From Candidatus Omnitrophota bacterium (GTDB lineage: Bacteria; Omnitrophota; Gorgyraeia; Zapsychrales; JANLHA01): a DNA stretch of 64,000 bases. Position numbers and translations under genes: made by a program. The notes under the pieces are model-generated. The model was not told the origin of the DNA. It worked only from the letters and a program-made list of their open reading frames with translations, and ran no database searches. Location: NCBI GenBank assembly GCA_029560465.1, contig JAKQKX010000073.1, positions 79,411 through 143,410 on the forward strand. The letters are read 5' to 3'. Every line of letters begins with the position of its first letter. Within the stretch, counting starts at the first letter, position 1. Of this stretch, positions 3,508-60,300 are shown piece after piece.

Positions 3508-3625
3508 TAATAATATTAATATTAAATAAATAAAATTAATTATTAAAAAAATTGGCTTTCCGCTTGTTTTTTGATATTTCAAAGGGTATACTTACATTTG
3601 TAACACAGTAACTTAAGGAGGAGAT

Positions 3626-5447: not shown

Positions 5448-5535
5448 AACGGCTGGCTTTTTAGAGCATCCCGATGATTTGAGGTTAGTGTGGGGTTTTT
5501 CGGATAAATTATTCTGATGGCAAGGGAGTGATTGT

Positions 5536-7479: not shown

Positions 7480-7658
7480 AATTTAGTTTGTTTCGAAGCG
7501 TCCGTTGAGGGAAAAATGGCCTGCCCTTTCCTTTTCAAGAGGGGATGCTTCGATTTCCTTCCAAAGAATTCTTGCCAAAAGCAATTTTCGTTTGTATACT
7601 AAAAACTATTAGTTAAAAGATGTTTTTAAAAACAATCGTAGGGAGCTCTTAAAATTTA

Positions 7659-17014: not shown

Positions 17015-17314
17015 ATGAAAACACGGAAAAGGAATCAAAGGAAAAAGCTTTATAAATGGCCGGGACAGGTGTCTTTGGAGTTTATGTTTGGGATGATCGG
17101 TGTCGTTTTGCTTGTGGTCGGGATGATTCAGGTTTTTGCCTGGACAGGCAATGACCTGATGAAACGTTTTAACTCTCATGAAGCTCTTTTGGTTTCTCCG
17201 GTTGGCACTTCTCAACCTGCGGCTCCTTTAGAACAGGTCCGGCCGATGTTTTATTCGGTCACAAAAATAAACGCAACGGTTAATAGCAATATTTTTGGAG
17301 AGGAAGCTCCTTAA
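17015..17314 (+). CDS. small TadE-like pseudopilin
   Basis: 'WPGQVSLEFMFGMIGVVLLVVGMIQ' pilin-like N-terminus. 99 aa. Its 3' end overlaps the next ORF start by 20 nt. Confidence 0.45.
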   Translation: MKTRKRNQRKKLYKWPGQVSLEFMFGMIGVVLLVVGMIQVFAWTGNDLMKRFNSHEALLVSPVGTSQPAAPLEQVRPMFYSVTKINATVNSNIFGEEAP

Positions 17315-36300: not shown

Positions 36301-39300
36301 TAGGAGACTTGCCTGTAAGAATAAAGGCGTTGAAATGGGAAGAAAAGAGACCCATTGCCAAGGGGAGTACCCGTTCTGGTTTTGAGCTGACCATTAATGG
36401 CGTAACGAAACATTTAGATTCTTCCCAGGAAGTGCAAGTTTTGGTTACACTTGACGACGGCAGACAGGGGTGGGTGGATTTGGCGGATGCTTTCTCTGGT
36501 AGTTCTTCTAAAGACTGGTATGGTGGGCCAGCGACCCTTACCGATGCAGAGGGTAGAACCTTTACCAGAAGAGTGTTGTATTCTAATGTGGAAGAGCTTT
36601 TTGTGACTGCGGAAGTGTATGAAGGAAAAGATTCAGCAGGCAATGATATTGTTAGACAAATTCAGGTTCCTTATAACAAATATAAAGCGGGCCACGAATA
36701 TAAAGGAGAAGAAGGCAAGAATCTTTGGACGGGGAAAGACCATGGATGGGCCATAAGTTTTCGTAGTGCGGGGTTGGCTGGATGGGATGATTATGTGGTG
36801 CGGGTACAAACAGGAGAAAATGAGTTTACTTATATTAGAGTAGACAATAAATACGCCGATGCGCCTGTAGATGGAAAAATAGGAGACAGGTCTTTTTGGA
36901 AGGGGACTATTGATGCGCGTCCTTATTATGATGGCTTTTTCCAGGGAGTAGTAGGAAACTATGCTGTGGATGATGCGTTAGGTCTGTTTATGCGAAACGG
37001 CAAGGTGTTTTTTGCTAATTTTGATAATGAGGATGATGGCCCTATAGGCATGTTAGTTAGGGACGAAGTTCTTAATAAAGACGGGTCGGTGTTGTTGCCG
37101 GCGGGGATTGGAAGTCGTAACAGCGATGCTCGGCAATTATTTAGAGTAGGAGAATCATTACAGACAGCGGCCAACATTCAAGGGACTTTAGATGCTGTTA
37201 CAGGGATTGTTACTGTTGCCACGATTCCTTTGACGTTTGGTGGAAGCAGCGCTGTAGGCGGGGCGGCTGGAAAATTTGCTGCGAATCTTGCAACAAAAGG
37301 TCTCGTTGGGAAAATTGCGGCTGGGGCAGTTAGACTTGCCGCACAAGCTGGAAAGACGTATCTTACCAAAGGGGTTTTGGTTTCCTGGGGGTTGGGAGAA
37401 GCCTTGGCATTCGCACAGAGTGGTGAAATTAATGTTGGTCAGTCAGCTAAGAATCTGTTGCTTTTGGGTGGATTGGCCAGGGGCTTGGGCTTTGTTGGTT
37501 CTTTGGCCAAGGGCGCCACGATGGCCGAAGCCATGGCCGCCGGGTCGATAGGTACTGGGACAGCAGCCGGTGGTTTTAAGTCATTGATGATCAAAGAGGC
37601 CATTGCTGTGGGTGTTCCGAATGCGATTTCAATTATGCAGGGCAATGGTTTGTTGGCTCCGGAAACGAACATGGTTTTAGTTGCCTTAGGTTTCTTCAGT
37701 CCGGGTGGGGCCTCCATCGCCAATGTTGGTAAGAATATTTCCACCGCCGCCCGACTTGGCGCTATGTCTTTATCTGCCGGTTTGGGGTTTGTGTATTGGG
37801 GTGGCGCTTCAATTGCGTCTCTTGGCGCTTTTCACGGCAATACCCAACCGGGTTGGGATGTTATTAAGTCCGTTCCGTCTAATTTCCTTATGGGTTTTGG
37901 CTTCGGCGGAGCTTTTGGTTTGGCTGGCATGGGCTTTGCCAAAGCCGGACAATCTGCGTTCTTTTCTAATTTTTCAACAAATTTCCCGAGAGTATACAAA
38001 TTTTTATCTAATCCCATTACGGTAAACGCCGGAGTCGCAACCGCAGGAGCGGTTGGATTACCGACCATAAGAGGCGTTTTAAAGACATTTGAAGCCAGAA
38101 CGGTTGCGGATAAAAATTTAATGGATAATATAGGAAGTGAATTCACATTAGCCAACATGGTAACTGGAGCTTTTATTGCGTTGGCTTATAGAGGATTGGT
38201 TGGGAAGGGATTGACCAGTAAAGGGCCGTTATTAAAAGCCCCGGCAGCAAGCACAGTAGAACAAAGTGCTTTAGCGGCACAGAAAGCCGGACATACTGCC
38301 AAGTATGGAATGGATGCTGTCAGTATTAAGTATGGCTTACAAAAGATTGGGATTGGTGCCGGGATCGGTGCCAGTGCGAAAGTATTAAATACTGCGATCA
38401 AAGATATTTCTGGAGAAGATGTTAAATGGCAACAGTATGGGTTGGATGTGTTGTCCGGCGGTGCTTTAGGGGCGTTGACCGTTGCTTTTATGGTTCAGCC
38501 CAAAAATATAACAGGAACAGCGCAAGGGAGTCCGGGGTATTATTGGGCGAATCCTGAGAAGCTATTCGCAGCTATGGAACATGGGGCGGCAAAATGGGTT
38601 TATGTTTCTCCCACCTTTGAAACAATGGGGGCTTTTTGGAAAGGGGTTTCCGCGCGGATAGAGAATGCTATTTTAGGAGAAGATTCCCGCTATGCCAAGC
38701 AAACAGGAAAAGAAATGCCCTGGTTCGCGGTGGAAAATGTGGATGAAGAAGGCAAGTTTAAAAATGAAGACAAAAAACTGATTTCAGTTTTTAGAGATGA
38801 TAAGGGGAGGTTCACACCAGATCGTTTAATAGATGCTAGTTTGCAAGGGCCGCAATCTGGTCTTTGGATGGCGCCATTGTTTGGGGCAATCCAAACCCAG
38901 GGGTTAAACGGCGGGCTTGCTCAGCGGGGATGGCAAAAAGCTCTGGCGGTTGTTCAGAACCCGTTTTCCGCCTCTCCCACGCTTATGAGTTTGGCAGAGG
39001 GCAAAGTGGGGATGGTGCTTTCGACTCTTTATCGGGACGCGTTATACATGCCGGGATTAGTTACAGGGTTAAAAGAAGTCGCGTCTTTTTCCAACCAGGC
39101 CGCGAAAGCTTGGACCGGAGAGGACTCGGTTGTTGTCTTTGACGCAGCCGAGGCTTCGGGATTTGGATGGTTGGGGATGCTGGCTTTGCCGACATATACT
39201 TTACTACCGAAGCCGGTCACAAAATTGTCCTCCAGTGACGAAACTAAAAAAGAAGTTATGGAGTTGAGCGGAAAAACAGAGGCGGATATTACCGCGCTTT

Positions 39301-42300
39301 CTAAGGGAGAAGCGGGCGATGGCAAAGGTTCTTCTTCTCCTGTTGCCTATACGAAAGACGGGACCAGGATTTATTTGGTTGAGAATGCCGATGTGATTAA
39401 AAAAGGAAGAAATGTTATCGCTTATCAGCACAATGCTGGTGTTGATGGGAAGTCCATCATTGTGGCGGTATATTCCGGATCCGCGGAAGCTGCTTTGGGC
39501 CAGATATCAAAACAGCTTTCCGCCTATAACGCAGCCCAGTTTAACAGCGCCGGTGTCAAAACTGGGAAAAAGAATGTCTTCTCTTCTAAGGGAGGGTGGG
39601 TTAATAGAGTGTTTTCTCGCTTGGGGGGAGGGGAAGTCTTAGTAAATGGTGAAACAGCCAGGGGGGCTGTTGTATCTAAAATTTTAGGTATGTTCGTTGG
39701 TAAAGGTGCTAAAGCTGAAGCAAATATTTTGATCGGCAAGTATGAAAATCTTAAAGGTCAGACACCGTCACAAATTTTATTTAAATATGCAGAGAGCAGG
39801 GGGGGAAAGAGAGGGATAACGAGTGCTGAAAAGATAGCGACCGTTTATTCCTCTATTTATTCCGCAACTGCAGGTGATCGCACAGCCGTGATAAATAAGT
39901 CAAAGTTGACGTCTGGGCAGAAAGAGGTGTTGAAGAGCATGTTATCTGCTTATGATCGTGTGCAGGCTGATCTTTCCTCGGTTCAAAGCACCAGTAGATT
40001 TTTTAGAAGTAAGAAAAGCGCGGCTCTTCAGAGTGTTTTGCTCTCCATGTTGGATATAAACGACTCGATCCTGAATCCTACCAATCCATATGGGAGCAAG
40101 AAAGGGTTGGAAGTGAGACCAGAGCAGGTGGCGGTCCAGATTTTGACTGAGAAAGCCGGCCGTATGCTCGGCGGTGAAGTTTCGCTTGGTAAAACAATCG
40201 CCACAATAAGCGGTATTTTGCAGGATATAAGGGGTGGCCGTGTTTCTTCTTCTAAAGGGAAGACTGTGGTTATTGAATATATATTGAGAGAAGACTTAAT
40301 AGGGCGGTTAAATATAGAGGCCGCCCAGGGGACATTAGATATTTTGAGCGGAAAGGGGAAATTAGGTCTCTCAAACGGAAAAATAGTTATCCGTGACGGC
40401 AAGAATGCGGGCAAAGAGGTTAAAGTTAAGGTTAAAGTTTTTGAGCCACCCACAGAAGGGTCGGCTAATGCCGAACAATACAAAGATTTAGTCGATGTCA
40501 GTGGTGCAGTGGATGCTTCTGGCCGCCGAAGATTTGCTTTTGCAGACGCTAGCCCGGTGGAAGCGGGCGACATTGTTCTGGCGATTCTGGGGCCGAGAGC
40601 ATTTCAGCACAGAGAGTTAGGAATGAAGTATCATTTTAAAGGCGCGCCTAAGAAAGGAATGTTTGGGGCAGGCGAAGGGGTGCAATGGACCCGAGTTAAG
40701 GCGTATGCGGATGATATTGACCGTTTGGTCGCGGAACCCGGGATGCGTTATGCCGGCCGTATGAATATGTCGGCGTTGGCGGATGCGGGATTGAATAAAG
40801 AAGCTTTGGATGGTTTAGCGGAACTGTTGCTGGGGGTATATACTCGGTATGATGCGGCGAAAGGCGGCAAGGTAGGAGGAAACAAAGAAGAAGCCGCCAT
40901 TGGCGAAGCCATGGATCCGGCTTTAAAGCTTTTGGATCCTTCTTCAAGAAAAATATTGCAGACTGCCCAAATTCAGCAATTATATGGACAATTAGTAAGA
41001 GAATTTTATGACAGCGTTACCGGGCCTAACGGAAAAACTAAATTGGTGGCTAACAAGAAAACCCAGTTGTTGGAGAAATTGTTAAATATATCTTCGGAAT
41101 ACCGGGATTTCTCCAAGGCCATGGGAAAAAGGCAAGACGCGGCTTTGCTTTATCTGACGCAGAGTTGGGCTCAGGCGACGTCTGGAACAAAGGACACCCC
41201 TGGCCTTTATAAAACAGGGCGGGATGTGTTCAGTTCTTTCATAGATCGGCATGTTTCTGATTGGGGCGAAGGGTTGATTCTTAATATGGGCGGCGGCGGG
41301 CTTCGTAATCCGGGAACTATGCCCGGGCATAAGGGTTTGGAAATTATGCTGGTCATACGTATGATACTTGAAACAAACCCGAAGAATCAGTCTGCGGAGC
41401 TAAAAGAGTACGTAAAGTATCTTGAGGAAAATATGGGTGTTACGCCGCAGACAATCAAATTAAATACAAAGGCCGGTAAAGCGGAAGCTGTGCAGTATAT
41501 TGTTAACGCCATGGCTTCCACCTCCCAGTTTGATATGAGTTTTGGGGAAGCTTTGCGCGGGAAAGCCGGAGGGGTAAAACCATGGAAGTATCTTGTGGGG
41601 CTTACCGGGACCCCGAGGTCAGCGAAAATAGGGTTTAGTGAATTAGGTTTGGTGTCAGCCATTGTCAGCCAGAGAGCGCCCTTGAGAACCGATTCTCAAC
41701 AAGGGCAGGTGGCTCGTGCGGATGTGGTTGCCTTGACCGGAAAACAACCGGGCAAGGGCTGGGAAGGGATTTTTACAAATAAGAATTTGAACGATAGCCA
41801 ATTGTATTTTGTTGCAAATGCCAAAGACGCAATTAAGGCCTCTTCTCTTCCTGATAATGTAAAGCTCAAACTGATAAGTTTGGCGGAAAAAACCACCACC
41901 TTAACGTTGGCAGGAAAGGAAGGGGTCGTTGGTACTTTAAAACAGAAAATTCAATATGTGGTTAAATTAGCTCAAGGTCTGGAAAAAATTAATGGAGAGG
42001 ATCGTTCCGGGTCCCGGGTTATTTTGGTGTCCCCGTCTGGCGACACCGAGGCGGCCATGATAAACAAGACCTTTAAAAACATGAAAGGGGTTGAGGTTAT
42101 CGGAGTCGGGTTCGGTAGCGACAAGGGTTCCCGTGATGCGGTTATAGAAAAAGTTACGGAGAGAGTCAAAGGCATGACAAAAGACGAGAACAAGGTTTTT
42201 CTCGTCGTAATTGCCGGCGAGTTGTCCGGGTCAAACTTAATGCCCATCGCCAAAGATTTGTCTAACGAGGGGGTCAGAGCTATCCCGGTTTTTACGGACA

Positions 42301-45300
42301 TCAGAAGTGAGGCCGCTTTGCTTCAGTTTATCGGTCGCGCGAGCATGCCCTGGAACCGCTCCGGGCGTGTAATAATGGATGATATAGGGAGCATGGGTAT
42401 TTTTGATATGATGAATACCGGGCTTACGACAGATTTGAGAACAGAGATTAAAACTGTTCAGGCCCAGACGGTGTTGGATCTTTCTAAGGCCAAGGCCGAT
42501 GGAGCCTCCTTTGTTAAGCAGGCGGCAATAGTTGCTAAGGGCGAAGCGAAAGTAGAGCAGATTTTTCTTAAAGCAATTGCGAGGCAGGAAGCTTTTGAAG
42601 CCCGGAACATACGCGGGTTGATCGTTCAGAACAATTTGATGTCGGCGGCCCAGACCACGGAAATTTTAGCCATGGCTGAAAAAGCCGGTTCTGGAGACCG
42701 GACTGGACAGATGAAGGGACAAAAAATAGCGCAGTTGATTTCCAACCGTGCTGCCGAGATCGCCAGCGGTAATACCACCATGGCAAACATAGGTTTTATG
42801 CCGGTTGCGGATTCTAATGTGTTGGGTGGAAATTTTGTGGGGACAGGAGACGGAAGCATCGCGTTATCTCAAATAGGGTCTTGGACACAGAATTTAGGGG
42901 GGCAAGAATCTTTTGATGTAATCCGAGAAGGTTTCAATATAGAGGTATTAGAAGCTGGAATTGGGACGCAGACAATAAATACAAAAGGTGGGAAGGTCTG
43001 GACGATTCCCGGCTTGTCTTTCTCTTTGTTCACTCCTGCGGAGGACAGCAAGAAGCTTTATGCCGTTTATACTGACAGCACAGGAATCGTGACTTCTAAA
43101 GTTGAGCTTGATCAGGATTGGGCGGCAACGCTGAATAAAGAAGGTGGCAGTATCACAATCCCCACAGGAAACAAGAGCGAGACCATGACCCTGACAAAAG
43201 GGGCGAGAGCAGATACGTTTAAGTTGGCGTATGCCTCCACAACAGGCTTCCAAAAAGATTCTTGGACTTTAAAAGCCCAGGACGCCTATACGATGAATGT
43301 GGAAGGTTTTGGCGTCATGCCGATTGCCACGGAGCAAGATCTCCTGTCAGCCCTGAAGAGCACCGACGTGCGCAAATATCAGACAGGCGTGTTGCAGCCT
43401 GTGAGCAGACAAGCGGTTGTCGCTTTGCTGGGTGAGAAATCGATGGGTGACCTGGAAGATATTTTTGAAAAAACAGGGAATCAGGGAACAGAAGTAACCT
43501 TTACGCAAAATTATCAGGCAGGAATTGACCGGGCGGTGAGTGAAGGCACGATAGAAAAGAGCCAGGGTGACGCTTTAAAGAAGATGGCTAAAACTAAAAA
43601 GGTGGCTAATTTGAGCCGTCAGTTCCTGATGCCTGGCAGCGGTGAAGATACTGCTCAGCAGGAGCCGCGGGTGCAGAATCTTGATATAACGGTTCAGTAT
43701 AAAGGGAATAATATTTTGACTCGTAACAAGAGGGGCGGTTTGGAAATTGGGGTGACCCCGATGATCGGTAGATTTGCGAATGCGTCCACGCGTGCCCGGG
43801 CCTACCGTATGATGGCGCAAACGCTCATGTTGAACAATAATTCTCTGGGCGTGGTCAGTCTTTTAGATGCCGTGATAGCGCAGCAGACGACAAAAGAGTA
43901 TTATGGATACACAGCGGATGAAGATATTGACCAGGAAACACGGTTAGCTATTAAGCGGGCGACATTGCTTTCTTCTCGGAGCGCAGAGGCAAAGGCTCAA
44001 ATTAGTGAATATTTGTCAGCAGGTTCTGGCGAAGGGGTAGCAGAGACGGCTGGAAAACAAATTCAGCAAAAAATGGCTAATGCGACCGCCCGGAGATTGC
44101 TGTCCTCTTATGAAACCATGGTGGATATTTATGGGTATATCGCCCCCAGTTTTGTTTATAATGATGCTTATGCGCAGGATTTTGCACAACAGGTAGAGCA
44201 AATTCGTCAAGAGCAGGGAACGGACGCGGTGGCGCGGGTATTAGCGATTGCTCAAAACGCGAAGAAAATAATCAACGATGGTGTTACTCCTTTAAATTTC
44301 CGGCAGAGATATATATTAACAAAGTTGGCGGAATTGGCCGAACCGGAGAACGAATCGAAAGTCAGGAATTTGATCAGTGCGCCGGTTAGTCTGGGGGAAG
44401 GACTGTATTCCAAAGAGTCCGGTGCTGGCATAAGATTGTTATTGCCTGAAGAAATGACAGACCGGGATCAGGGGCGCGCCGCTTATAGCTCGGATAGACA
44501 TGAAGTTCAGGTTTCCATGATCAACCTTGACCTGACCGGAAAGATTAGTGATAAGACATTTTGGGGGTATGATTTTTGGCATGAGAGCGTGGATCACCCT
44601 GGCTTGGACATTACCAATACCATATTGATGACAAGAGTCAATCTGAACGAAGTCGGCGCTCAATTATTATCTAATTTAAGAATGCAGGACGCCACCCTCG
44701 CTGATACAGAAGAAGGGAAGGATTTGCGGCAGTCAACAGACGTGTTTAATAAGATTTTTGGTAATCTTATGGACATTAAGACAGTTAAGAAATTACAGGA
44801 AACATCATTGCCGGAAATGGCGGATATAGCCTTTAAGAAATATAGTCTCATCCAGCCGGAAGGCGTTAAAAGAGAATTAGAAGCTGAAAGATTTGCTTTT
44901 ACCGCTATTAATTTGATGCAGACCGCTTTAAAAAAGGGCGGAGTGGATGTTTTATATCAGCTGGACGATGAACTCAACGCTTCCAATAATAGAGAAGGGG
45001 TCTACACTCCGAATATCTTGGCTAATTATAGTGAAGCTGAGCATGGGGCAAAAATTTATGTGAAAAAAGGTGGCGTGATTGGAATGGGCAAGGAAGTGTC
45101 TCATTTGATGGCGCTTTTCCATGATGGCAACCATGCTTTAAGCGAAAAGAAAGAAACCGCGTCTCCGGGGTATATGTCCGCCAAGGTCGCTGAGTTGCGC
45201 CAGATTGTCAGTGAAATGAATGACCCGAACCTTACGGAAGCCGTGGGCAGGCTTTTGGATCGGTTCCAGGCTATAGGAAATAATAAATATGACCATCCCG

Positions 45301-48300
45301 TAGAGGATTTGATAGTTGCGCTGAATGATACCAGCCGGACAGATATTACTCCCGCGACTATAAAAACCGAATTGGGTCATATTAAGGACCGCGTTTCTGG
45401 AAGCCGGCAGTTTGATCAAACAGCGCAAAGCACACAAGATTTTGTGGTGGCAGTAGATCAGTTATTAGGTCAGGATACTGTCAGCTCCGATGACCTGAGT
45501 CGCCTGGCATCCATGCCTTTGGCTAAAACCGAATTCGGGGCCGGGGTTGAGCTTATGGGACATGTAGCGCCATTTTTATTCATGCCAGCAGAGGCGGGTC
45601 AGTTCCATGGCAATGACGCAGATTTGTTGACCGTCGCTAACGCCATTATTTCCAATGACCAGTTGGGGCAATTTATGCGTCAATATAATGCCGATATCGG
45701 TGTGCCGGTTGAAGCTATTGCAAAAGCTAAGCAAGCTGAAACTTCTTCTCCGATTAGCGGCACAGAAACAACGGCCGCGTCCTCCAGTTCTCCGATTCAT
45801 GTTATAGGCCAAGATAGTATTTTGGCTTTGAATACGGAAGATGCGCAAGAGTTGTTTTTAGGTATCGCAAATGCGAGCCTTGCGGTTCCGCCGGCGTATA
45901 AACAATATGCGCCGCTTATTCCTGATAACTATCAAGGAACTCTTCCTCCGGATGCAGCCTCGGCGGGTGGTTCTGATGGTAAAAAAAGAAAAACATCTAG
46001 AATTACACGAAAGATCCTTTTTGAAGAAGAGGTTACTGCCGGAGAAACAAGAGATAAAGGAGATTCCGGGGACGGTCTTTCTCATAGTTTAGGTCGTCTG
46101 CAGAACAGCAGAGGAGAAAGAAAAGGTCGGACTCGCAGTGGCTTGGAATCAAAAGAACCAACGACAGCAGTGGCAGGGCGCTTTGCTCCGACTTCTTCTG
46201 CGCCCAGAACTTCTTCTTCGTCAAATCAGGGGGTTACGGCGCCATATGCTTTGGATATTATGATGCCGGTTACCTCTGCGTATTACTCGAATCAGTCCGG
46301 ACAGATTTCTTCTGTGTCTTCAAATATAACCCAGCAGCCTTTGGGGAATATCGTTTCCTCTCCGGTTGCCGGTGAAATGCGGCAATTTGGCTCCGTGTCT
46401 TCGGAGTCTATTGTAGATATGACGACCAGAGACCTTTCTGTTTCTTCTGGTTTGGCGCCTCCGGTCAATATGCCAACGCCGACGTTTAAGCAGCCCGCGG
46501 TATCTTCGTCGATTGTTCCGGTGTCCCCTGTTTCCCCTGTTTTATTGCCGTCTTTCCATGTTTCTTCCACTCCGAAAATTACAACCACTGGTTTTAGCGC
46601 CAGCAATATATCAAGCTCTCCGATTAATTATAATGCGAATATCCAGCAGCGGCCCAGTGCGATCGTTAAGTTACCCACGATTCAGGCCATGGCGTTATTT
46701 AACAACCAAAACGAATTGCGGAATATTATCCGTAGTGAAGCGGAAAATGACTATAACCAGTTAGATAACGCCGGGCTTATTGATCTTTTTGTTGACACCC
46801 TGAAAGATAAGAAGATGGGTGTTGACTCGGAGATTTCCGGCCTGCAGAGCATTGAAGTCGAAAAAGCGGACAGTATCTTAGACCGAGTATTGTATGTTGT
46901 TGCCGGTAAAACGTCATCTGAAGTTAAGAGTTTGGGGCTTACGAGCAATGAAGGGTATCCTCAACAGGGTTATCGTATTGGGCAAGCTGGGCCAAAAGAG
47001 ATGCGCGTTGAGTTGGACGTTATGACTCCGGAAGTCGTTATGCCGATGCTGGACCAGGTGAAGAGTAAGGCGGAAGTCAAAGAATGGTTGATTCAGCAAT
47101 TCAGCGTTCAGAGGATGGCAGAGAGCCTGCCGAAGATGGTTGGCGAGGAAAACCTGCAGGCCGGAGTCGGGAGCCATTATCATCACAGTCGCGCCGAAGA
47201 TTATGACCAGGAAACAGCGCAGGCCATGGAAGTTTACCAGATTTCCACGGAATTTTATCGAAACATCCTCGAGGGGATGGCGACGGATAATGTGCAGTTG
47301 TCAGCGATGCCTTTGTCCCCCAGCCCGACGTCCATTGTCGGCCATCTGCAGGATTATCGTCGTGTTTCGACGGGGAAAGATTTCACTAGCAAACAAAAAG
47401 GCATTGCTGGCCAATATCATTCCGAAGAACGCGTCCCGTATTTGACGAAAAGCGCCCGCGCTTTTGTCGAGACCGCCGTTGTGACGGCCAAGATGAACGA
47501 AGTCAATAGAAGAGTGCTCGAAGATAAAGGGTACAGGGAAGGCATTAAGAAAGATGTTTTGACAAAAACAGTTGTTAAGATGAAGCAGGCGGGCAATTTG
47601 ACGGATGAGCAAATCAAACAAAAAGTCGCTGTTTTGGATAAAGTGATCGGAGACGACGCTTTCTTCCCGGCGGACTTCAATGTTTCTTATACAAAAGATG
47701 CGGGCGCGTTTAAAGAAGTGTTAGAAGCCAGTTATGAAGTTTTTGTGGGTGAGCTTGATTTGCCGGAAAGCATGTCCAGCCGCGCTTTGGCCGCATACCA
47801 GGAATACAATGCCACCGTAGACAAAGTTAAATCTTTATCGGCGAATGACAGCACCCAATTAACCGAAACTCAACAATCCTTGGTCAGCGCGGTAAATAAC
47901 TGGGCCAATGTTTCCACTTTGGATTTCGTTCAGGCGATTAACAATAAGAAGCAAGCCATTGATTTTTCTGGAATTCAAAGCAACCTCTCTGCCCAGAGCG
48001 CATCTTCTCCTGTTAGTATTGAGCAAGCCAAACAGGAATTTAATAAAGCCGTTCGGAGTTATAACGAAGCGGTGGAAAGCGGAAACCGCCTCTATGATGT
48101 GCGTCCGATTGTTAAGGGGATGGCGGCGGCAAACAGGGAATTGAATGCCCTCCCCACCAGCAAAGAAAAGACCGAAATTAGCAAGAAGATCAATCAGGGA
48201 AGTCAGCAGATGTTATTAGAGGGCATAGAGGGCGCCCCGTCGGTCATTAATCGGTTAGGCAAGGCGATCAGTCGTGACGAATATACCCCGAAGGGTCAGG

Positions 48301-51300
48301 AAAAAGCGCAGGTTCAGGAAATTATAGAAATGGCCGCAGTTCAAATGAAGCAATTGGAAGCAGAGAACGGCAAGGCGGCGGTGGCTAATATTCGCCGGGA
48401 CTTCAATGACAGTGTCCGTTCGATGATGGATAAGATTGAAGTTAGCCCGGAGGTCAAGAAAGATATAAGGTTAAGCAGCTATGAACAGAAAAATCCGGCG
48501 ATGTACGGATGGCTGACACAGGCGATCAACGAAGTGGATGAAGCAGCGAATGATGCTCAAGGGCCTTTGTCACACGGGATTACTTATGTGGTCAAAGGTG
48601 GAAAGATATACACGGATGGAACAAAGGCCCCGCACGCCACCTTTATGAATGAGAAGAATTATCCGGAGTTGGGTGGCTTGAAGACCGGCGGCGCCGATTA
48701 TATAGGGTATATGCGGGTCGGCAAACAAAACGGGAAATTGGTATTGGCGGTTGACAAGGGGTCTAATACGGCCAACAGCAGTGCCCAATTGAGAGACTTC
48801 TCTCGTAAGATTGGCGAGTTAAAACGGGTATTAAATGACTTGGGAATTCAAGCCATTGTTTCGGTCAATGGCCGCGGGTTAGAAGCCGATGGTACGTCCT
48901 TAAACGGCCTGAGAGCCCAGAATTATATAACCGATGCGCCCACTAATATTGTTGTTTCTTCCGCGATTACAAAGATGGCGGCCGGTGATGTTTTACGGAC
49001 TCAGGGCAAAAATCTTTGGGCTAACCCGGCGGTGCAGGATACGGCCGTGTATCTGTCGCAGAACGGGTTGGATGAGAGCTTCCAGCGTGTGGAAAAATCT
49101 TCTCTTCCGGCTTACATGGAAGTCTACGAGAAAGACGGGATTCAGATTATTCGTAAGGAATTAACCCGTGAAAACGCCAATGAAATTAGGCAATTAGCGC
49201 AGGCGCAACGCCAGTCGAATGTCCCTGTTTTCTTTGCCAAGGGTGACACGGAGCATTATTATGAAGTTAATCTTGCTCCCGAGGGATATACGACAGCTTA
49301 TCAGGTTGTCCGGAATTCTCCTGATAGATTGGCGAAACTAGCTGAGATTCAGCCGTATATTATGGCGGCGGCTGACGACGGGTTGAGATTTGACAACAGC
49401 CAGTGGTTTGTCCATAATCACCTGCATCCTAAGAATATTATGATCAAACAGAACGATGCCGGTGAAATTGAAGATGTGAAATTTATCGATTGGAAAAAGT
49501 TAAGTAGCTTTAACCCTGCGGCGAAACCAGAAACAGCGCTTCTTCAGCAGGGCGACCAGAACGCGTTAAAAGGCGTCAAGGTTGAGGATGTGGGGTTAGA
49601 GTGGTTTGATTTCACGGATTACGATTTGAGTGGCACTGACTTTACAAAGACCGCCAAGATTTTCGGGTCTTATGTGGATCAGGCCAAGACATCTCAAGAA
49701 ACCAATGTGCCGGAGATGGAAGTTGGTTTGAACTTTGTGGCGTTGGTTCCAGCTATCCCGGCTAACAGGAAAGACGCTACGCCGCGTTTAAGAGGCGGAA
49801 TTCAATCGTCTCCTGTTCAGTTGACCCAGAAGCCGACCGCGGAACAATTCTTGGCTATTAAACAGGCGGTTGCCAAGTCTGATTTCTTCAAGGAAAAGAG
49901 CATTGTCAGCATAAGATCCAATGCCTCTGAACAAGATAAGGCTATTTATGAAGACGGGAAATTAAATGTTAACTTAAATAATTTTGATCTTAAAACAGTT
50001 AATGCCCTCCAGTCTTCCATGGGGGTTGGCGTGGAGCAGGCTTATACGGAATACGCGACGGTTGTTTATAACCATGAAAAATTCCATCGCGAAACGATCA
50101 GTAACGAAAAGAAACAGCGTAGTGCTCAGCCGAGAAAATCCGGCGATTATACCCAGCGCGAGTTGCAGGGCATTATTAGTGAGGCAAGAAAATCCGAGGA
50201 TGATAATATCCGGACGGCGGTTGCAGAAATTGATAAGATTATGTCGCAATCTTACCATTACTCTCCGCAAGACGCAGATTTCGGCGAAGAGATGTTCGCT
50301 AATTATATAGAGAATGGCGGATTAATGGTAAGAGGGGTTTCTGGATCTGGAACCCGGGACGTAAAATTCGTGCTGGCGGCCAACGCTTTAATGCAGAATT
50401 TGGTTAAGCAGAATAAGATTTCCAGGGCTTTTGTTGATCGGATCGCGGAGAAAGCCGAAACAAAGGACACGGCCTTTGATCCTATGGCCACGGATGCGGC
50501 CCGTTTCGTCGCCAATCCCGAATCTTATGCTAAGACGATGTTGGTTGCGGCCAAGAGCAGTTCTGTTTCTTCTCCGATTGAAAGTGATGATTATTCTGAC
50601 TTTGAAGCGGATCGGCCGTATCAGCCGTATACGAACGTGGCGGCTCGGGATGTTTTACAGCCGTTATTCGCCGGAACGCCCGACGCTAGTTCCTTGTCAT
50701 TCCTGGATGTAGGGTCTGGTTCCGGCATTAACACGGTTGCAGCTGCTTCCGAATATAAGGTGAACGCGATTGGTATAGATCCTCAAGCCAGCAATGTGCA
50801 GTTCGCGCAGAATTTGGTTAAATCTTATGCCGGCAATTTAAAAGAGCAGGGCGCTTTTGAAAAACCCGGGGTTGTGGATACCCAGATTGAAGATTTTGTC
50901 GCGCAGGGTGTTCAGCCGAAATCGGTTGAAAACGCGAATTTTGTCGAAGGCAGCGCTACGGATCTCCCGTTCTCCGATAATTCCATTAACAGAATCGTTT
51001 ATACGGATGTTGAGCCTTTCATCTATGATCAAGAAGGTAAAGATAAAGCTATTGATGAAATTTTAAGAGTGGTCAGTAAACAGGACGGGAAGATTATGGC
51101 CCGACCTAAAGCTGGGGCCAAAGAAAATGACGTGGCTGTCTTTGTCGACCGCTTCCGGAATACCGCCGCCCAGAGAGGGCTTGCCTTAGACGTCCAGCGA
51201 ACGGAGATCGCTGGGTCGAACAATGGTATTCTGTTCACGGTTCGGCAGTCAACCCCGGCTTCTTCTCCGATTAACGTGGCTCAAATAGACTCCTTAGAAA

Positions 51301-54300
51301 CACTTCTTAAAGGGGATCTGAAAGGGAAGAGAATTCTTGAAATCGGGCCGGGCGCCAAGACCGATTTGATTGAAGCTTTGGTGGATGCCGGTGCGGAAGT
51401 TTGGGCGGTTGATTCCAGGATTATAGGTCGGGGTGAAGAAGCGCTTATTTTTAACAATCCTGATAAGCAGAGCGGAGTGGTTGCTGGTGCTCAGGCGCAA
51501 ATAGCCGACATGACGCAGTTTCTTAAAAATTATATGACTCAAAATCCGGACAAACCTTTTGATGCCGTTATTTCAAGAGGGGGCTTTGAGATCGGTTATG
51601 TGACGCAGGAAGGGAAAGCGCAGTTCTTAGAGAAAGATCAAGTTAAGACTTTGACGGACACATTAAGCCTCTTAAAAGGTGGCGCGCTTAAAGAAGACGG
51701 CGTGTTGGTGGCGGAAATGCATTGGCCGGAAATGTCCTTGGCTGCGATGGCTCCAGGAAAGATCGAAGAGGCAGGGTTCCGTAATAGATCTGTGACAGAT
51801 AAAGTGCTTGTCCTTCAGCCGGCTCGGGTGAGCGAGGCGAAGTCTTCTCCGATTTCTTTGGGTGATTCTGAAAAGCGTTCCGCCCCTGCTCAAATGACTC
51901 GCGCCCAATTGGAAACAGAGGTTCAGGCTTTGAGGAGTTTAGTTATTACCGATCCATTAACGAAAATTTATAATCGTGCCGGTTTTGAGAAACGTTTGGC
52001 AGAAGATGTTTCTGTTGTGAGTCGCGACCGCCGTCACCGGCTACAGGTTGTTCTTCAGGATTTGGACCATTTCAAGGCAGTAAACGACCTCTTTGGACAT
52101 CAGGTCGGGGACAATGTTTTGGCAGGCGCGGCTCGCATTATGCAGGAAAGTATTCCGGAAACCGCGACGGTTGGCCGTTGGGGTGGAGAAGAATTCACGC
52201 TTTCCTTGCCGGGCATGAGCGCTGTCCAGGCAGTAGAAGTGGTTGATGGTATTCGGAGCAATCTCGTGAACGGCGTTTTGCCGGGTGAAGACCAGTTGAA
52301 TGACCGCGAGTTTGTCCAGAATGCTATTACCAGCATGGTCAAAGCTGCTGAAACGGGCCGATTGACTAAACAGGAAGCAAATAATTTTAAAGCGGCGCTT
52401 ATTCATCAGTTTGAAGAGCAAGGGCTTTCCGGCGTTACTCCTACGACGGCAGCGGGAGAAGACGGATTAAAGGTCTTTTTGGTTGGCATGGAAGGGATTT
52501 CTAACATGCCGACTGCGGAACAGATGCGGCAAATGCCGTTGGCCGAATTGCCGTATGAACAGTTGAGCCGTTGGGTGAGTACCAGTGGACAGGAAGGGGA
52601 AGACTTCGCCATTTCCATCCCTGGCGTGAGCGCGGCCGAGGCCCAGAAGATTGTCGGGGATATCCGGGTGAAATTGAGCTCCGAGAGCATCCCGGAATTC
52701 GTCCAGTTGAATGACCGAGATTTTGTCCAGCAGAAAATTCGCAGTTTCGTGGATGATGCCGTTGCCGGTAAGCATACGCAGAAAGAAATCAGTAAGGTCA
52801 GGTCTGCTATTGTTCACCAATTTAAGGTGCAGGGAATCGAAGTTGAGGGTTCTCCAACCCCAGCGCAGATGATGCAGATGCCGCTGGCCGAGTTGCCTTA
52901 TGAAAAATTAGACCGCTGGGTGGTGACAAACAGCGCGGGTGTGGCGACGTTTGATCCGAAGGAAGACACCATTAATACGGCAATCTTGCACGCGGATGTG
53001 GCTTTGGCGCAGGCTAAGTCGGAACGCGCTAAGACCCAGATTATTAAGAATGCCATCGGGGAACGCGACGCCGGTATTGAATTTTCACACAGTTATAGTC
53101 AGGGTGAAGCGATAGTTGAGCAGATGACCCGTGAAGACCTGGAAAAAGAAGTCGCGGTATTAAGAGATCTGGAAAGTTTTGATCAGTTGACGAGGGTTTA
53201 TAATCGCCGCGCTTTTGATAAAAAAGTTGAAGAGGCCGTGGCCTCCGTAAGAGCTCCTGGCGAACGCCGTAAACGTTTGAATTTTGTTATGGTGGACATT
53301 GATTATTTCAAGTCCATCAACGATTTGTTTGGGCACGATGTGGGCGATGATGTTTTGCGCGGGTTGGGTGTCGTGGCCAAGGCTTCTGTCCGGGACAGCG
53401 ACAAAGTAGGCCGCTGGGGCGGAGAAGAATTCGGCATAGTTATCCCCAATGCCAGTGCCATGGATACGGTCCGCATTGTGGATAGAATCCGGGCAGGGTT
53501 AAGAAATGCGATGATTCCGGAATTATCAGCTTTGAATGACCGGAACTTTGTGCAGGGGAAATTAAGAGAGTTTGTTGATGCGTCCCTGTCCGGGAAAAAG
53601 ACCGAAGATGACGTCACGGCAACTAAGGTCGCCTTGATTCATCAGTTCCGCGTTCAGGGTTTTAAAGATTTGCCTTCTAATGAAGCGATGATGGACATGC
53701 CTCTTGTCGAGCTTCCTTATGATCAGTTGGACCGTTGGGTAGTGACGCATAGCGCCGGAGTCAGCGACTATAATGCGGCTCAGGAAAACCCGACAGAAAA
53801 CATGGTTTTGAAGGCGGATCTCGCTTTATATTCGGCAAAAGAAACCCGTAGCAACACCCGCGTTTATGAAACCAATGTCCAGCAGGCAGTTAATAAATAC
53901 GCTAAAGAATTAGCGCATAGTTCCAAGCATTTTATTTGGCAGTTGGAAACCGTTGCTGACACTGCCGTGCAGGGAGCTCCACAGAGCCGGGAGGCAAAAA
54001 GCGCCTTTAAGATCGCCCAGGCCCATGGCCGGAAAGTGTTGGCAACGTATGGTGTCACCGAAGGGCATGAAGATTTTCAGCCGCTAATGGATTCTTTTAT
54101 CCAGACTCTTGCCCAGGAGCGCGGACGCGTTTCTTCGTCTCCGGTGGAACAAACTTTGGGGAGCGTAAGTTCTCCTGTTCCTGTCGAACCGTTCAAGGCG
54201 CAGCTTTCCTTTGGGCGCGGCCGGAAGAGCGATAATGTTGTTAGAATTCTTGGGGAACTCGATAAGACCGATTTGAAAGAACAGCCGCAGCAATATCTTG

Positions 54301-57300
54301 GTTTGTTGGTTTCTTATTCTCGTGAAGTTAATGATAAGCCCGAGCGGGCGATTGAGGCTAGGGCGGAAATCACCCGGGCAAAGACGTATATTAAAGAGAA
54401 CTATATCGCCTCCGCCGATGATTTGGTTAAATACAGCGATGCTTTGGACATATCGCCTAAGGGCCAGGCTTTGGTTGCGGCTTATACCAGGCTTCGTGAT
54501 GATGAAATTCACATTACTTTGCCGCGCATGGCTGATGTCGCTAAGATTTCCAACACCGAAGCGCAGGAAATATTCGACGCAGAAATCCGGCCGGTAATAA
54601 AGATTGCTGAGCAGAAGCTCCCCGCCGATCAGGAAATCATGGCGATTATGGATAGTGCGGAAGCGGATGACTTGGAAGAAAAGGCTTTTGCGAGCCTTGA
54701 GAGCGATATCCGGGACGCGGTTAATAAAGGCGAGTTTGCGACGTATGATGATGTGGTGGCTGTCACGCAGGGCATGACACAGTCGACGAAGCACCGGGTG
54801 TTGGGTAAGCTGCAGAGCTGGCAGTTGTCCGGCAGAGATTTTAAGAATATCCAAGAGGCGGCCACGCAAGCCGAGGCCGTGGCGCCGCGGCCAGTCCAAG
54901 TGATGGGGCATGTGGTCAGAGTTCATAATCAAGTTAAATCGTCAAAGTTGCAGAATTTACAGTCTAACGACGATTTGGTGCCCAGGATCCAGGAATTTTA
55001 TGCCGGGATTGAAGGCTTCCACTTAAAAGGTAATTTAAAAGGGCTTGAAAGAGCGCACATAGGCAATCAGCGGGCTATTTTCAGGCAACTTAATAATGGC
55101 GGAGTTGTCCTCCTCGGCGTAGAAAACAGGGGTGACATTGATTATGGTGCTTATGAAAAATTCACTCCGGCTAACATGTCAGACGAGGAGTTGCTGGCGA
55201 AGTCTTATGAGTTAACAGAAAAAGTTTCGTCTCCGATTGAATCTCAGGATAGAATTGCCGTGGTTGTCTCCCGGGATTCTAAAGATATTGATTATGAAGA
55301 TCTCCGTACCTTGACCGGCGCAGTAAATAATGCGTCCCCAGATCAGCGCTCTGTGGTTTTGGCTAAGATTTCCGATGTGATGAAGTCGAATCCCAAGATA
55401 GAGAGCGAAATTCGATCGCAGGGTGAAGTCGTTCTTGATGTTCAGCCGCCGGCCGGGTATAGCGAACTCGTGACTCTCACGCCGGAACAGGTGCAGAATC
55501 TTTCTCCGAAGATGGCAAACTTGAGTCCTTACCGTACCGAAAGAGCTATCTTGGCGGTTGTGGCGCAGGATCCGGTTGTGTTAAAAGGTGACGGGACTGC
55601 TTATGATGGAAACAACCGCATTATTTGGGCGCAAAAAATGAATGCGCCGTTGAAGGCATACGTTCCTAAGGGGCAGAAGGAAATGCTTTTGGCGTCGTTA
55701 TCTCAGTCCAGCAGAGATAAGGGAACAGCCAGCAGCAGTCCGGTTGCGTGGCAATTAACGCAGAGTCCGGCTCGTCAAATGCCGTTAACTTCCCAGGAAA
55801 GAGCGCATTCTTTAGAAACAAAAGAGATCGTTAAACGAGGCGGTATGTTGCAGGTGTCCTCTTCTGTTGTGGCACGGCCATCGCCCATGGCTATGGCGCA
55901 GGCTCAGCCGGGCGGTATGATGCAGGTTTCTTCCGCGGTTGTCGAAAGGCCGTCACCGGTGGCTATGGCGCAGGCTCAACCAGGTGGATTGATGACCGTC
56001 TCTTCAACGGTTGTTAAAGAACAACAACAGTTTCCGGCGATATCCGTGCCGACCATAGAATCGCCAAAACCGTTTGAAGTGACAGCGCCTGCGATTATTG
56101 CGACACCGGAAGCCCCGGCCGTTACTTTGCCGATCACAACAATGCCGGTTTTCATGCCCTCTCCTTTAAGTGAAGCGCCGCGGGTTGAGGCTCGGCCGGC
56201 TGAAATAGCCTCGGCTTCGCGCAAAGAGGGCCGTTCTTCTCGTCAGAATAGTGAGTCATCAAGCGCAAAACCGGAAAAACGCGGTGGCATGATGCAGGTG
56301 TCCTCTTCTGTTGTGGCACGGCCATCGCCCATGGCTATGGCGCAGGCTCAACCGGGCGGCATGATGCAGGTTTCTTCCGCGGTTGTTGAAAGGCCGTCAC
56401 CGGTGGCTATGGCGCAGGCTCAGCCGGGCGGCATGATGCAGGTTTCTTCCGCGGTCGTTGAAAGGCCGTCTACGCAGATGGAAATAACTCAGCCGGGCGG
56501 CATGATGACAGTATCCTCTTCGATTATTGAGAAACCTCAAATTGCCAGTCTTGAGGCCGAAACATCTAGACCGTTTGAAATGACGGCCGTCGCTCCGGCC
56601 CTTTCAGCGCCGGTATTTCCAGTTCTATCTTCTCCGTTAAGTCAGAGCCTTATGCAACAAACAGAACAACCTTCCGTCCAATCTGCTCAGGCGGCTGATT
56701 TTATGGACAGGTCGGCTATTCAGCAGCAAGAACGCTTATCCGTTCCGTCCCAAACAACGATGTCTGGTGTTCGCCCGACGCCATCACCCGTGCGTAATCT
56801 TAATCTGACCAGGCCTGAAATGAACTTTGCGGCTATTCCTAAACCGGAAAAACGAGGCGGGATGCTTACGGTGTCTTCTACTGTTATTGACCGCCGGTCA
56901 TTGCCGGTTTCCGCCCAAGCCAAGGTTTCCAATCCTGAAGAAGATGCGGGCTTGTCTGCGGCAGAGATGGTTACTGAATTGCCGGTTAGTGCGCCCTTGT
57001 CTGCACCGATGCCGGTTCTTTCTGCTCCTATCGTTCTTCCCGCGTTCACAGGTGGCCCGTTTGCTTCTGAACAGCGGACTTTGACTACGGAGATTTCAAA
57101 AGATTTAGCGCAAGCAAATACTTATTATGATGCTCGCAGCCAGATCCAGCAGGAACAAGAAGGCGAGATACAAGATTTGTCATTCTGGGACATCACATCT
57201 GGTGCTATGAGCCAGGCTGTTTCCTTGGATGAGAAAGTCCGATTGGCTCATGATGCGAATAAATCCGTTGTGTTGTTTGAGCAAGGAAGAACCCTTCCTG

Positions 57301-60300
57301 AATTGTTGTCTGCCGCTAATAAGACAGTTGCCGAGACATCCCGGCCAGTCTATGTTTATGTTCCGACAATGGAATCCATGGAAGTGGAGCGTGTCGCCAC
57401 TCAGATGGGGATAAATTTACCGAAAGAGACTTTGGGGCAGATTTCACAACTTATGGCTGAAAAACCGCTTGTTTTGGGCGGCTTGGATACTTTAATCAGC
57501 GCTGTGCCGGAATTGGAAAAATACGATATCGTGCTGGTCAGGAATTTCATGATGGCTCTTCAGCAGGCCAGAAAAGCCCCGTTTGTGTCTTACCAGAAGA
57601 GCCTTGATGGAGAAATAATTTCTCAACGATTAGCGTTTGAGCAGTTGCCTAAGAATTATCCGATAGTTTTGTTAGGAAACGACGAGACCCTTAAACCGTC
57701 TTCCGAAGAGTTGCGTAAATATATCGTTGCCCGTAAACCATATTTGGATAATGAGCTGGTTCAGCATATTTTGCCGACAACAGAGCGGCTTCAGTTGGCT
57801 AAAGGGGAAATTTTGGAAATTGCACCGGTGTCGTCATCCATTTCGACAACTGCGGCAGAGAAAGAAGGGGCGGCGATTATTTATGCGGCCAGCCTTTCGG
57901 TTTCTGAGAAGATGGGTGTGATCGATTTTATCGGAAGATATCCCGAATTTAAAGATGGGACAACGAAGGTTGAGATAATTCGCGGGAAGGATCTTGAGTC
58001 AAAAATTTATATGGCTGATGACACGGGGAAGACCCGGACGGTTCTTATTCCCGAAGATGTGTTCTATAGTGTGATTTCTAACCCGGTTTTGGGAGAAAAG
58101 AATCAGCGGATTGGCATAGAGAAGAGCGACAGGGTTGATCTGGCCATGAAGACCGGGAAATATGCCCATTCGTTGCCATCGGAATATCATACAGTTGATT
58201 TAGGTCAGGTTTTGAAAAAGCATGACTTGACCTCCGGGTTGCAGATTACCGATGAAAATCCGCTTTTGGTTGCTTATGATCGCCGCGATTTTGACGTAGC
58301 TCAGGATCAGATGGAGAATATTTTGGTCTCTTTGGCGAAGACGGTTGATGTTTCCGATTTATCGCAGATCACCCGTCTCCAGGTTGTTCCTTCTGACATG
58401 AATCTGCCGGCGAAAATTATGTTGACGGACATGAACAAGCAAGGACAGCCCAAGACATTGATTTTGGCACAGTCTTTGATACAGAATCCCCAGGAGATTC
58501 AAAACGCTTCTTTGATGGTTGATAGTCGGAGTTCTATCGTGAGATTGGCAGAAAAGCAACGGGCAGAGACGATTGCCCGGAATCAGATTGATCCGGACGC
58601 AATTACGGTCGTACGCCTGCCGGGCGGGGACAGGGCTTATATCGAGAAGAATTTTGTTAGATTTGTCGACGACCGTGGCCGGGTCCGTAAACAGCAGATG
58701 GAGTTTAAGGGCGTTAATATTATTGAAGTGGGGCGCATTATTGCCGGGTTGAGCGATCAGCAGCGCAGGAGCTTGTACTTGATCGAGGCGGACAAAACAG
58801 CGGATATTTATGTGGATAAGGCTTCTGGAGAAAAGTGGCTTCCGGTTTCAGTTCATCTTGGTAGCACGAGATATTTGGCTTGGGCCAGATTTGATGAAGA
58901 GATGGAGTTGGCTGTGCCGGTTAACGGAAATCAATTGATTTACGCTGAGAAGATGGTCATGTCCGCGGTCAATGAAAGTGGCCGTCCACAGTTTAAGCCG
59001 GTCGGGTTTGATAAGCGCATTGATTTCGATACGTTAATGCCCGGCGCCGACTATTCGGTGGGTGACTATGTGGAATCGTTAACAAGGCAATTAGCGATGG
59101 AAGAAAACATTTCTATCGATTTTGTCAAAATTGATGATTTCAATTATTTTGTTAAGCCCACAGGCGTTCGGATTATTAAGAATGATAAAGGCCAGACGTA
59201 TTTGATTCTTGGAACCGAGTATGTTAAGGCCCAGAACGACCGGATCGCAGAGGCCCAGAAATATGATTTGGCCATCACAGATCCGTTAGGGATGTATCGA
59301 GCATTTATCGAAGAATCTCAGGCGAAAGAGCTTGAGGTCAAAGATGCGTTCGGTGTTTTTGTTGTGGCTGTGACGAACAAAGTCGGTCAGATTTTAACCA
59401 GAGATTCGAGATCTGGTGGGCAGGATCAAATCGCGTTGAAAGATATTCCGATCCTTTATACCACATTAACCGGGGAGCAAATTATTGTGGCTTCTACCAA
59501 GAAGTCTGATATTGAGCAATATCAGTTTGATATTGCTATTGATCGCGGCATCACGACACGTAAGGAACAGTTGGCCGAACCGAAGGTGTTCGAAGCAGTT
59601 CCGAGTTCAGCTCCTGTGACCACACTGCCGTTGTTGCCGGGCACAGATACTTCAATTATGCCTCCGATCGGCCTGTTGTCTCAGGCTGTTCCGGTTCAGG
59701 CAAGTACGACAGAAACAGTAGAAACAGCACAGATTGAGAAATTGGCTTTAGCCAGTATCCCGATTAGCGATGAAGAGCTTAATGGGCAATTATCAAAGGT
59801 GGGCAGTACGGTTGAGATGCTGGATATAGAAACAAATGAGGTTGGAAGAATCGTTTCTAACGTTCAGTTCAAGAATCCGTTCAGCGGTCAAGAAGTCCGG
59901 TTGGCCAGCGTAGAGATGAAGAATGGGGATGTCCAATCGTTTACTTTTGATGAGTTTAAGAAAAAGAATATTCGTATTGTTCGTCCTTCTGCCGAGCAAC
60001 CTTTGTCAGAAAAGACTAAAATCGCTTCGGCTCAAAAACAGCTTTCAAAACCGACTGCGGTTGAAATTCGACCGGCAGCTTCACCAGTACGTAATTTGCC
60101 GTCGACTGCTACGGAACGAACATGGGTAGATGCTCAGGCGACGAGAAAAGACCGGATGAAAGAACGCCAGTCTGGCGGGTTGTTAATGATGTCGGCTATG
60201 GTTATTATGAATCCGGCTGACGCGGCTGTCCAGGAAGGACAGTTTGAAGAGGCTAAAGATTCGTCATCGCCGATTATGGTGGCGTTAACCAATCCGATGG

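Follow-up and report, generated by a model that had tools for sequence, protein, structure and literature searches.

Can a domain built like a protein kinase still work, as an enzyme or as a switch, when histidine stands where the catalytic aspartate should be? The question is raised by a locus in a 64,000-nucleotide stretch of contig JAKQKX010000073.1 from Candidatus Omnitrophota bacterium (assembly GCA_029560465.1); the whole stretch is referred to below as the window, and all nucleotide (nt) positions are counted from its first letter. Nucleotides 49005-49559 encode a compact, minimal protein-kinase-like domain, which is a member of the protein-kinase-like (PKL) superfamily by fold. Two motifs mark it: FVHNHLHPKNIMIK, encoded at nt 49407-49448 on the + strand in the third frame, and IDWKK, encoded on the same strand at nt 49485-49499 and in frame with the first. 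A sequence-only reading of the window had aligned these with the catalytic loop and the metal-binding motif of kinases and had proposed that the Asp of HGD is replaced by His (H-N-H). Both motifs were borne out by translation and are shared by ~45 homologous proteins, and the replacement was confirmed by the codon at nt 49419 and by HMMER and hhalign alignments. The loop is spelled by CAT (His, nt 49413), AAT (Asn, nt 49416), CAC (His, nt 49419), a CTN codon for Leu, CAT (His, nt 49425) and AAT for the loop Asn (nt 49434), and the Asp of IDW by GAT (nt 49488); the CAC at nt 49419 places His at the position of the kinase catalytic Asp. The spacing to IDW, put at ~16 residues in that reading, was measured as 18 residues from the loop Asn to the Asp, and the extent, given there as nt 48700-49560, was narrowed to the conserved domain. 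AlphaFold2 (AF2) models show the segment just before the domain, included from nt 48924 on, as a linker of low confidence.

No gene appears at the motif in the list of open reading frames (ORFs) of the window because the frame has no stop between nt 24312 and the end of the window, a run of at least 13,229 codons, and the motif therefore lies inside a giant gene, ~8,370 residues into its product. A 1,330-residue fragment of the giant protein is listed at NCBI as 'hypothetical protein, partial' (HPN56728.1) from Candidatus Omnitrophota bacterium.

A kinase fold with histidine in the catalytic loop

Evidence from the single sequence was borderline, and evidence at the level of the family was decisive. 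The window copy was scored by Pfam at 22.2-25.1 bits against EcKL (PF02958; cutoff 22, E=1e-5 to 1e-4), over profile positions 166-249 of 294 only, at 13-16 bits against APH (PF01636; gathering cutoff 23.2, E=0.009-0.08), and below the cutoff against DUF1679. No Pfam match to the window copy was returned at E<=10 for Kdo/WaaP (PF06293) or RIO, none was returned for Pkinase (PF00069), and a search of NCBIfam yielded no family for the domain. When the PDB was searched by phmmer with the single sequence, E values of ~0.6-1.4 were obtained, with protein kinases throughout and HRDLKPNN aligned to HNHLHPKN. The profile searches proposed in the sequence-only reading (APH, Kdo kinase, RIO), like its other checks, favour a kinase fold: EcKL rises above its cutoff, and APH, DUF1679, Kdo and Pkinase are matched weakly when the family is included. 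APH stays under its cutoff, and Kdo and RIO are unmatched by the window copy.

In individual Pfam scans of 52 family members, EcKL was matched by 28, DUF1679 by 11, Pkinase by 2, Kdo by 2, APH by 1 (E<0.01) and RIO by 0. A profile of the family, run against the PDB, matched CDPK1 at E=3.4e-5 over ~120 residues from β3 to the DFG position, followed by MSK1, RSK2, PLK4 and DAPK. Structure prediction by AF2 with the family alignment gave a 271-residue model with a predicted local distance difference test (pLDDT) score of 87.8 and a predicted template modelling (pTM) score of 0.85, and a model of the 185-residue core with pLDDT 95.8 and pTM 0.89. When both models were compared with the PDB by Foldseek, the top 50 matches were exclusively protein or choline kinases, at probability 0.99-1.0 and E down to 7e-6; for the core model the top 50 had probability 1.0 and TMq 0.36-0.54, and the best template modelling (TM) scores were 0.50-0.54 at a root-mean-square deviation (rmsd) of 4-5 Å. 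The best of these matches were ULK2, IRE1, CaMKII, Wee1 and CDK2. HMMER paired HNH/HGH with HRD in CDK7 and CDPK1, and hhalign set His8370 on Asp190 (HGD) of APH(3')-IIIa over 17 catalytic-loop columns at 61% probability. Membership in the APH family was rejected on the shortness and probability of that match and on the PF01636 score under the gathering cutoff.

The kinase fold that had been proposed from the letters of the window therefore stands, on profile searches, on the AF2 model and on a Foldseek top 50 made up of kinases alone. A chance resemblance of motifs in a non-kinase or non-coding stretch could draw on the borderline single-sequence figures (Pfam 22-25 bits, PDB phmmer E ~0.6-1.4, no NCBIfam family), but it is refuted by the family profile that matches kinases, by a confident AF2 model that matches kinases alone, by the ~45 homologs with shared motifs and by purifying selection, and is regarded as extremely improbable.

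The core is made up of the following elements (Table 1): N-terminal helix, N-lobe, αC, hinge, αD/αE, catalytic loop and Mg-binding loop. Residue numbers of the 271-residue model are converted to ORF positions by adding 8204. The β2-β3 hairpin ends in IQIIRK (K78 of the 271-residue model), and its Lys, K8282, is probably the equivalent of the VAIK Lys, as argued from the I-x-K pattern and from conservation; the HMMER alignment to CDPK1 places the β3 Lys register 4 residues off the VAIK Lys. An upstream Lys/Glu pair and a Gly-rich loop had been named as checks in the sequence-only reading. The conserved Lys was found, but the usual acidic position of αC (8294) is Gln in the window copy, with Glu three residues earlier at 8291, and the Gly-rich loop is absent. 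With Asn for Gly in the catalytic loop in addition, the window copy is a somewhat degenerate member of its family. A β7-β8 hairpin with D184 is followed by I188-D189-W190 (271-residue model). After the Mg-binding loop, one short helix leads directly into a β-helix in the AF2 models, and neither an activation segment nor αF-αI helices were seen in the models of the window copy. Of the protein-kinase-like catalytic set, Lys, Asn and Asp are thus present and conserved, and the loop Asp is His, in the window copy as in 46 of 54 family copies.

The β-helix of the window copy is probably of the pentapeptide-repeat type, a right-handed quadrilateral fold built from tandem A(D/N)LXX repeats. In the 271-residue AF2 model of the window copy it has single-residue strands every 5 residues (pLDDT 83-93); no sequence match to pentapeptide repeats (PF00805) was obtained for this copy, which is too degenerate for detection by sequence. 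Recognisable pentapeptide repeats follow the kinase core in 39 of 50 homologous copies, Pfam Pentapeptide matches 25 of the 52 members, and the family matches solved pentapeptide proteins in the PDB at E=1e-19.

Conservation and distribution of the family

An exhaustive HMMER search over 1.84 billion representatives returned 53 proteins, ~45 of which cover query positions ~430-660, corresponding to the domain. From these, 54 domain copies were extracted and aligned, some proteins having 2-3 copies. Relatives with a taxonomic label were from Omnitrophota or from bins labelled Planctomycetes. The catalytic-loop consensus of the family is H-G-H-L-H-x-x-N: His at column 164 (49/54), Gly at 165 (39/54; Asn in the window copy), His at the catalytic position, 166 (46 copies; the others have Asp (5), Asn (2) or Glu (1)), Leu at 167 (48/54), His at 168 (44/54) and, as the sole invariant column of the family, the Mg-binding Asn at 171 (54/54). 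Column 184 is Asp in 53 copies; the hinge columns have Glu in 52/53, Leu in 51/53 and Tyr in 52/54, and conservation of the β3 Lys and of the IDW Asp (column 189) is given in Table 1. Less is kept elsewhere, with an acidic residue at the αC position in 31 of 52 copies and a G-x-x-[FY]-x-G loop before β2 in 19 of 52.

Residues at column 166 are never hydrophobic or small in the 54 copies. Asp-bearing copies fall at three separate places among the His-bearing ones in a neighbour-joining tree (without support values), and one of them, P0050, has a canonical HGDLHPCN. One base separates His from Asp codons. His at the catalytic position is a selected trait of the family and not the result of decay.

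A scan of a genome collection with a 12-sequence core alignment found 15 loci, which with one exception lie in long open frames. Their sources are metagenome-assembled genomes (MAGs) of Omnitrophota, Ca. Omnitrophus magneticus, and bins whose label is uncultured Planctomycetales or Planctomycetia. The ortholog in CAZAXH010000003.1 (L005; 348-kb contig) has 88.8% nucleotide and 91.6% amino acid identity over 2,095 residues and keeps HNH. Against it, the ratio of nonsynonymous to synonymous substitution rates (dN/dS) was 0.10 overall (2,100 codons), 0.10 for the kinase core and 0.03 for the β-helix. A dN/dS of 0.10 shows that the giant ORF is a genuine gene under constraint and that the domain is not in decay. 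The locus L019, from a Pseudomonadales MAG, was rejected from the family, since it encodes a kinase of the ordinary Hanks type that has HGH independently. Positions 2737-3600 of JAESSY010000113.1 encode this 288-residue, membrane-anchored protein (PF00069, E=3e-18), which has HGHLHPGN for HRD and an intact TDFG. It is an independent case of the Asp-to-His change outside the family.

The kinase-plus-pentapeptide unit behaves as a mobile cassette. Neighbouring domains vary among homologs (methyltransferases including DOT1-like, GNAT, or a helicase with PAS-GGDEF-EAL), and a fixed partner domain was rejected on these grounds, pentapeptide repeats alone being constant. Five large Omnitrophota proteins (P0003, P0004, P0007, P0023 and P0027) were seen to carry the module 2-3 times in tandem, spaced ~330-540 residues apart within a single chain. 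Seven homologs were looked up by exact sequence; such proteins are labelled 'pentapeptide repeat-containing' or 'hypothetical' at NCBI.

With the APH/EcKL/choline-kinase type (PF01636, PF02958, PF07914), the source of its best Pfam matches, the domain has in common the loop H-G-x-L-H-x-x-N-I-L, an I-D-W/F ~18 residues on and a YELxL.P.G-type hinge; it differs in having His for the catalytic Asp, in a match limited to the αE-to-IDW segment, and in the absence of a helical C-terminal substrate-binding subdomain, with a pentapeptide β-helix fusion inside a giant protein instead. Hanks-type (CAMK-like) Ser/Thr kinases gave the best profile and Foldseek matches, and D-[IV]-K-I-I-D-[WF] here resembles their DIKIIDFG, but the activation loop, the APE motif and αF-αI are missing, HRD has become HGH, TM is ~0.5 and the Pkinase profile is matched by few members (2/52). 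The RIO/Bud32/Kdo minimal kinases likewise have a very small core without an activation segment; in those, the catalytic Asp and part of the C-lobe helices are retained, whereas here no member matches RIO in Pfam and 2/52 match Kdo. The RIO ATPase switch is a plausible analogy for function. Bacterial pseudokinase families (ActPs1-3, GLW, DLHK, DYD, CP1) also combine a kinase fold with a non-canonical triad, but are derived from PF00069 and typically lose the β3 Lys and/or the DFG Asp, whereas Lys, Asn and Asp are kept here. An HGH loop, a pentapeptide fusion and Omnitrophota all go unmentioned in two recent surveys of kinases and pseudokinases from bacteria, and neither Pfam (2025 copy) nor NCBIfam has a family for the domain. 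With the tests for membership in APH, EcKL, Kdo, RIO and Pkinase negative or marginal, no Pfam or NCBIfam family and silent surveys, the domain is rated a PKL family not described before, in which a conserved His has replaced the Asp and a β-helix takes the place of the C-lobe.

Enzyme, switch or pseudokinase

Taken as a whole, the sequence and model evidence is best explained by a module that is active as an enzyme or a switch, a reading that is put forward tentatively. The module would still bind Mg-nucleotide and would be competent for catalysis, whether it transfers phosphoryl groups or hydrolyses ATP as a switch. His8370 may stand in for the Asp, so that it accepts a proton from the hydroxyl or water that attacks, or orients that group, and the β-helix may provide the surface for a substrate or partner that normally comes from the missing C-lobe. 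A working Mg-nucleotide site is favoured by two observations: both Mg ligands and the Lys have been kept, and nothing but D, E or N is found in place of His at position 166. Nor does the site have the look of a decayed one, since among polar residues conservation is highest for those of catalysis and metal binding. The scattered Asp-bearing copies suggest that His and Asp may be functionally interchangeable at the catalytic position. For lipid kinases of kinase fold, there is a proposal that the DRH motif of PI3K supplies the catalytic base through its His (PMC8930771, PMC4170646), and minimal RIO kinases are ATPases that act via a phospho-enzyme intermediate (PMC4117770).

Several observations weigh against activity. 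The αC acidic residue is conserved in 31 of 52 copies only, the window copy having Gln; neither the window copy nor 33 of 52 relatives have a Gly-rich loop; the substrate-binding C-lobe is absent; and the likeness to kinases is moderate (TM ~0.5, rmsd 4-5 Å). A pseudokinase is operationally defined as a kinase fold without at least one of the β3 Lys, the HRD Asp and the DFG Asp, so that by the rule of the field loss of the HRD Asp alone suffices (PMC12599244), and the domain, with His at that position, falls within the definition, which is silent on actual activity. The scarcity of Cys in the giant protein (5 in 13,229 residues) could moreover point to an extracytoplasmic location, where ATP is scarce. 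A non-catalytic pseudokinase, serving as a scaffold, conformational switch or ligand sensor in the giant protein, with the fold and perhaps nucleotide binding kept and His of structural importance only, is the main rival, plausible though somewhat less likely than an active module. The HRD Asp is absent in 49 of 54 copies, as the operational definition has it; the αC Glu and the Gly-rich loop are poorly conserved; the activation segment is missing along with the substrate-binding C-lobe; and the tandem arrays of 2-3 modules in some proteins resemble scaffolding repeats. Hard to explain without a function of the active site, however, are the invariance of the Mg-binding Asn, the IDW Asp at 98% and the fact that D, E and N alone replace the His, and the bacterial pseudokinase families described so far usually drop several motifs together.

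A kinase fold put to other chemistry was also considered: a phospho-His8370 intermediate (ping-pong or ATPase), a transition-metal site formed by H8370, H8372 and D8393, or nucleotidyl or other group transfer. The alternating H-x-H-x-H loop adjoins the conserved Asn and Asp, as such chemistry might use, and kinase-fold enzymes with non-kinase chemistry provide precedents in SelO (AMPylation) and SidJ (glutamylation). In RIO kinases the intermediate is a phospho-Asp (PMC4117770). Against this, the basis of the proposal is purely inferential; H8368 and H8372 also occur in ordinary APH/Kdo-type loops (HGDLHPGN), which leaves one His that is new; and the Asp-bearing members do not fit a phospho-His mechanism in every copy. 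This alternative is considered quite improbable.

The active module can be elaborated into a fuller proposal, in which an active family has made the Asp-to-His swap permanent, with His as general base or as the phospho-His of an ATP-driven switch, the β-helix stands in for the C-lobe, and the cassette is shuffled through Omnitrophota giant proteins, sometimes in tandem, perhaps with action on, or within, the cells that these ultra-small bacteria attach to. In all its parts together, this proposal is rather unlikely.

The host protein and its surroundings

Features of the window are collected in Table 1. With at least 13,229 residues, a C39 domain, a methyltransferase-like domain and three GGDEF domains, the host ORF has the C39 architecture of the Omnitrophota giant proteins ('Archaeovorin', PF03412), which likewise combine an N-terminal C39 domain and transmembrane segments with methyltransferase and GGDEF domains and have a secretion or pilus locus nearby (here Tad). 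Such proteins have been described (bioRxiv 10.1101/2023.11.21.568195, 10.64898/2026.06.07.730766, PMC10066038); in a term search of these papers, no APH/EcKL-type kinase-like or pentapeptide module came up, and the kinase terms are PPDK, HATPase_c and ROK. Strong hydrophobic segments are confined to the first 620 residues of the giant ORF. An internal paralog search found no second copy of the kinase-like domain within the visible 13,229 residues. Upstream of the kinase module, nt 47925-48500 (ORF residues ~7872-8062) form a separate conserved region that matches a 5,039-residue protein (P0005) at E=2e-23 and for which Pfam gives no assignment. Downstream of the module by ~750 residues, GGEEF is retained in two of the three tandem GGDEF copies (nt 52182 and 53418).

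The giant ORF has 5 Cys (0.04%) in its 13,229 residues, and its neighbouring genes have 0-4%. The Cys at residue 177 is likely the C39 catalytic Cys. At β4 (nt 49218-49226), most relatives have C-C-P-T-F-F, with two Cys, and the window copy has N-V-P-V-F-F, which agrees with the depletion of Cys in the whole protein. Three ORFs directly upstream of the giant gene (nt 10730-12433, 15280-16995 and 17295-21341; 567, 571 and 1,348 residues) are Cys-rich (1.9-4%) and gave no Pfam match.

The + strand upstream also carries the 3' end of gyrA, tRNA-Glu, genes for a CN-hydrolase, malate dehydrogenase and a peptidyl-prolyl isomerase, and Tad/Flp pilus genes. Exact-match records for upstream proteins are from Candidatus Omnitrophota bacterium (HOY09665.1, HPN55753.1). 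Every 2-kb bin of the window shows positive GC skew, and the sizeable genes are all on the + strand.

Table 1. Coordinates of the kinase-like module, its host frame and other features of the window (aa, amino acids)
Feature	Position (nt)	Strand	Remarks
Tad/Flp pilus cluster	4644-9821	+	RcpC/CpaB; secretin-TonB C-terminal-domain fusion; 720-aa CpaE(ParA-like)-CpaF(T2SSE) fusion
Giant ORF	24327..63998, off window end	+	open from nt 24312; likely ATG 24327; at least 13,229 aa
Peptidase C39-like domain	24972..25217	+	near N-terminus of giant ORF; PF03412, E=3.4e-9
Protein-kinase-like core	49005..49559	+	ORF aa 8232-8416, 185 aa; AF2, Foldseek, profile, Pfam
N-terminal helix before N-lobe	49026..49064	+	core-model helix 8-20 (271-aa model 35-47); family consensus DLxxxGLxNF
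Candidate ATP-binding β3 Lys, K8282 (IQIIRK)	49155..49157	+	core-model strand 46-52; K 43/52, R 8/52
αC-like helix	49176..49205	+	aa 8289-8298; core-model helix 58-67 (271-aa model 85-94)
β5 and hinge, YYEVNLAPEGY (E114 of 271-aa model)	49257..49289	+	family consensus YELNLxPxGY
Catalytic loop, H-N-H-L-H-P-K-N (H164-N171 of 271-aa model)	49413..49436	+	His 8370 (nt 49419-49421) at catalytic-Asp position
I-D-W, DFG/IDW Mg-binding equivalent	49485..49493	+	Asp in 52/53 relatives; aligned to IIDFG of CDPK1
Degenerate β-helix, probably of pentapeptide repeats	49560..49718	+	aa 8417-8469 (271-aa model ~213-265); adjoins kinase core
SAM-methyltransferase-like domain	50688..51089	+	Methyltransf_25 and Methyltransf_11 near or below cutoffs; ~320 aa downstream of kinase module
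GGDEF (diguanylate cyclase), three copies	51939-52427, 52593-52838 (partial), 53163-53669	+	PF00990, E=1.5e-65, three stretches; self-search coordinates

The catalytic-loop Asp is among the most conserved residues of the kinase superfamily. Because a whole family has selected His at this position and yet keeps the metal and ATP ligands, it could be used to test whether the Asp is strictly required for phosphoryl transfer. Pseudokinase-like variants are common, but the family is a well-supported annotation and a clean, testable anomaly among giant proteins that are themselves poorly understood. In these proteins, which are largely unannotated, a recognisable and recurrent signalling-type module joins the GGDEF, EAL, PAS and methyltransferase domains, and it supports the view of Omnitrophota giant proteins as multi-enzyme signalling or regulatory assemblies.

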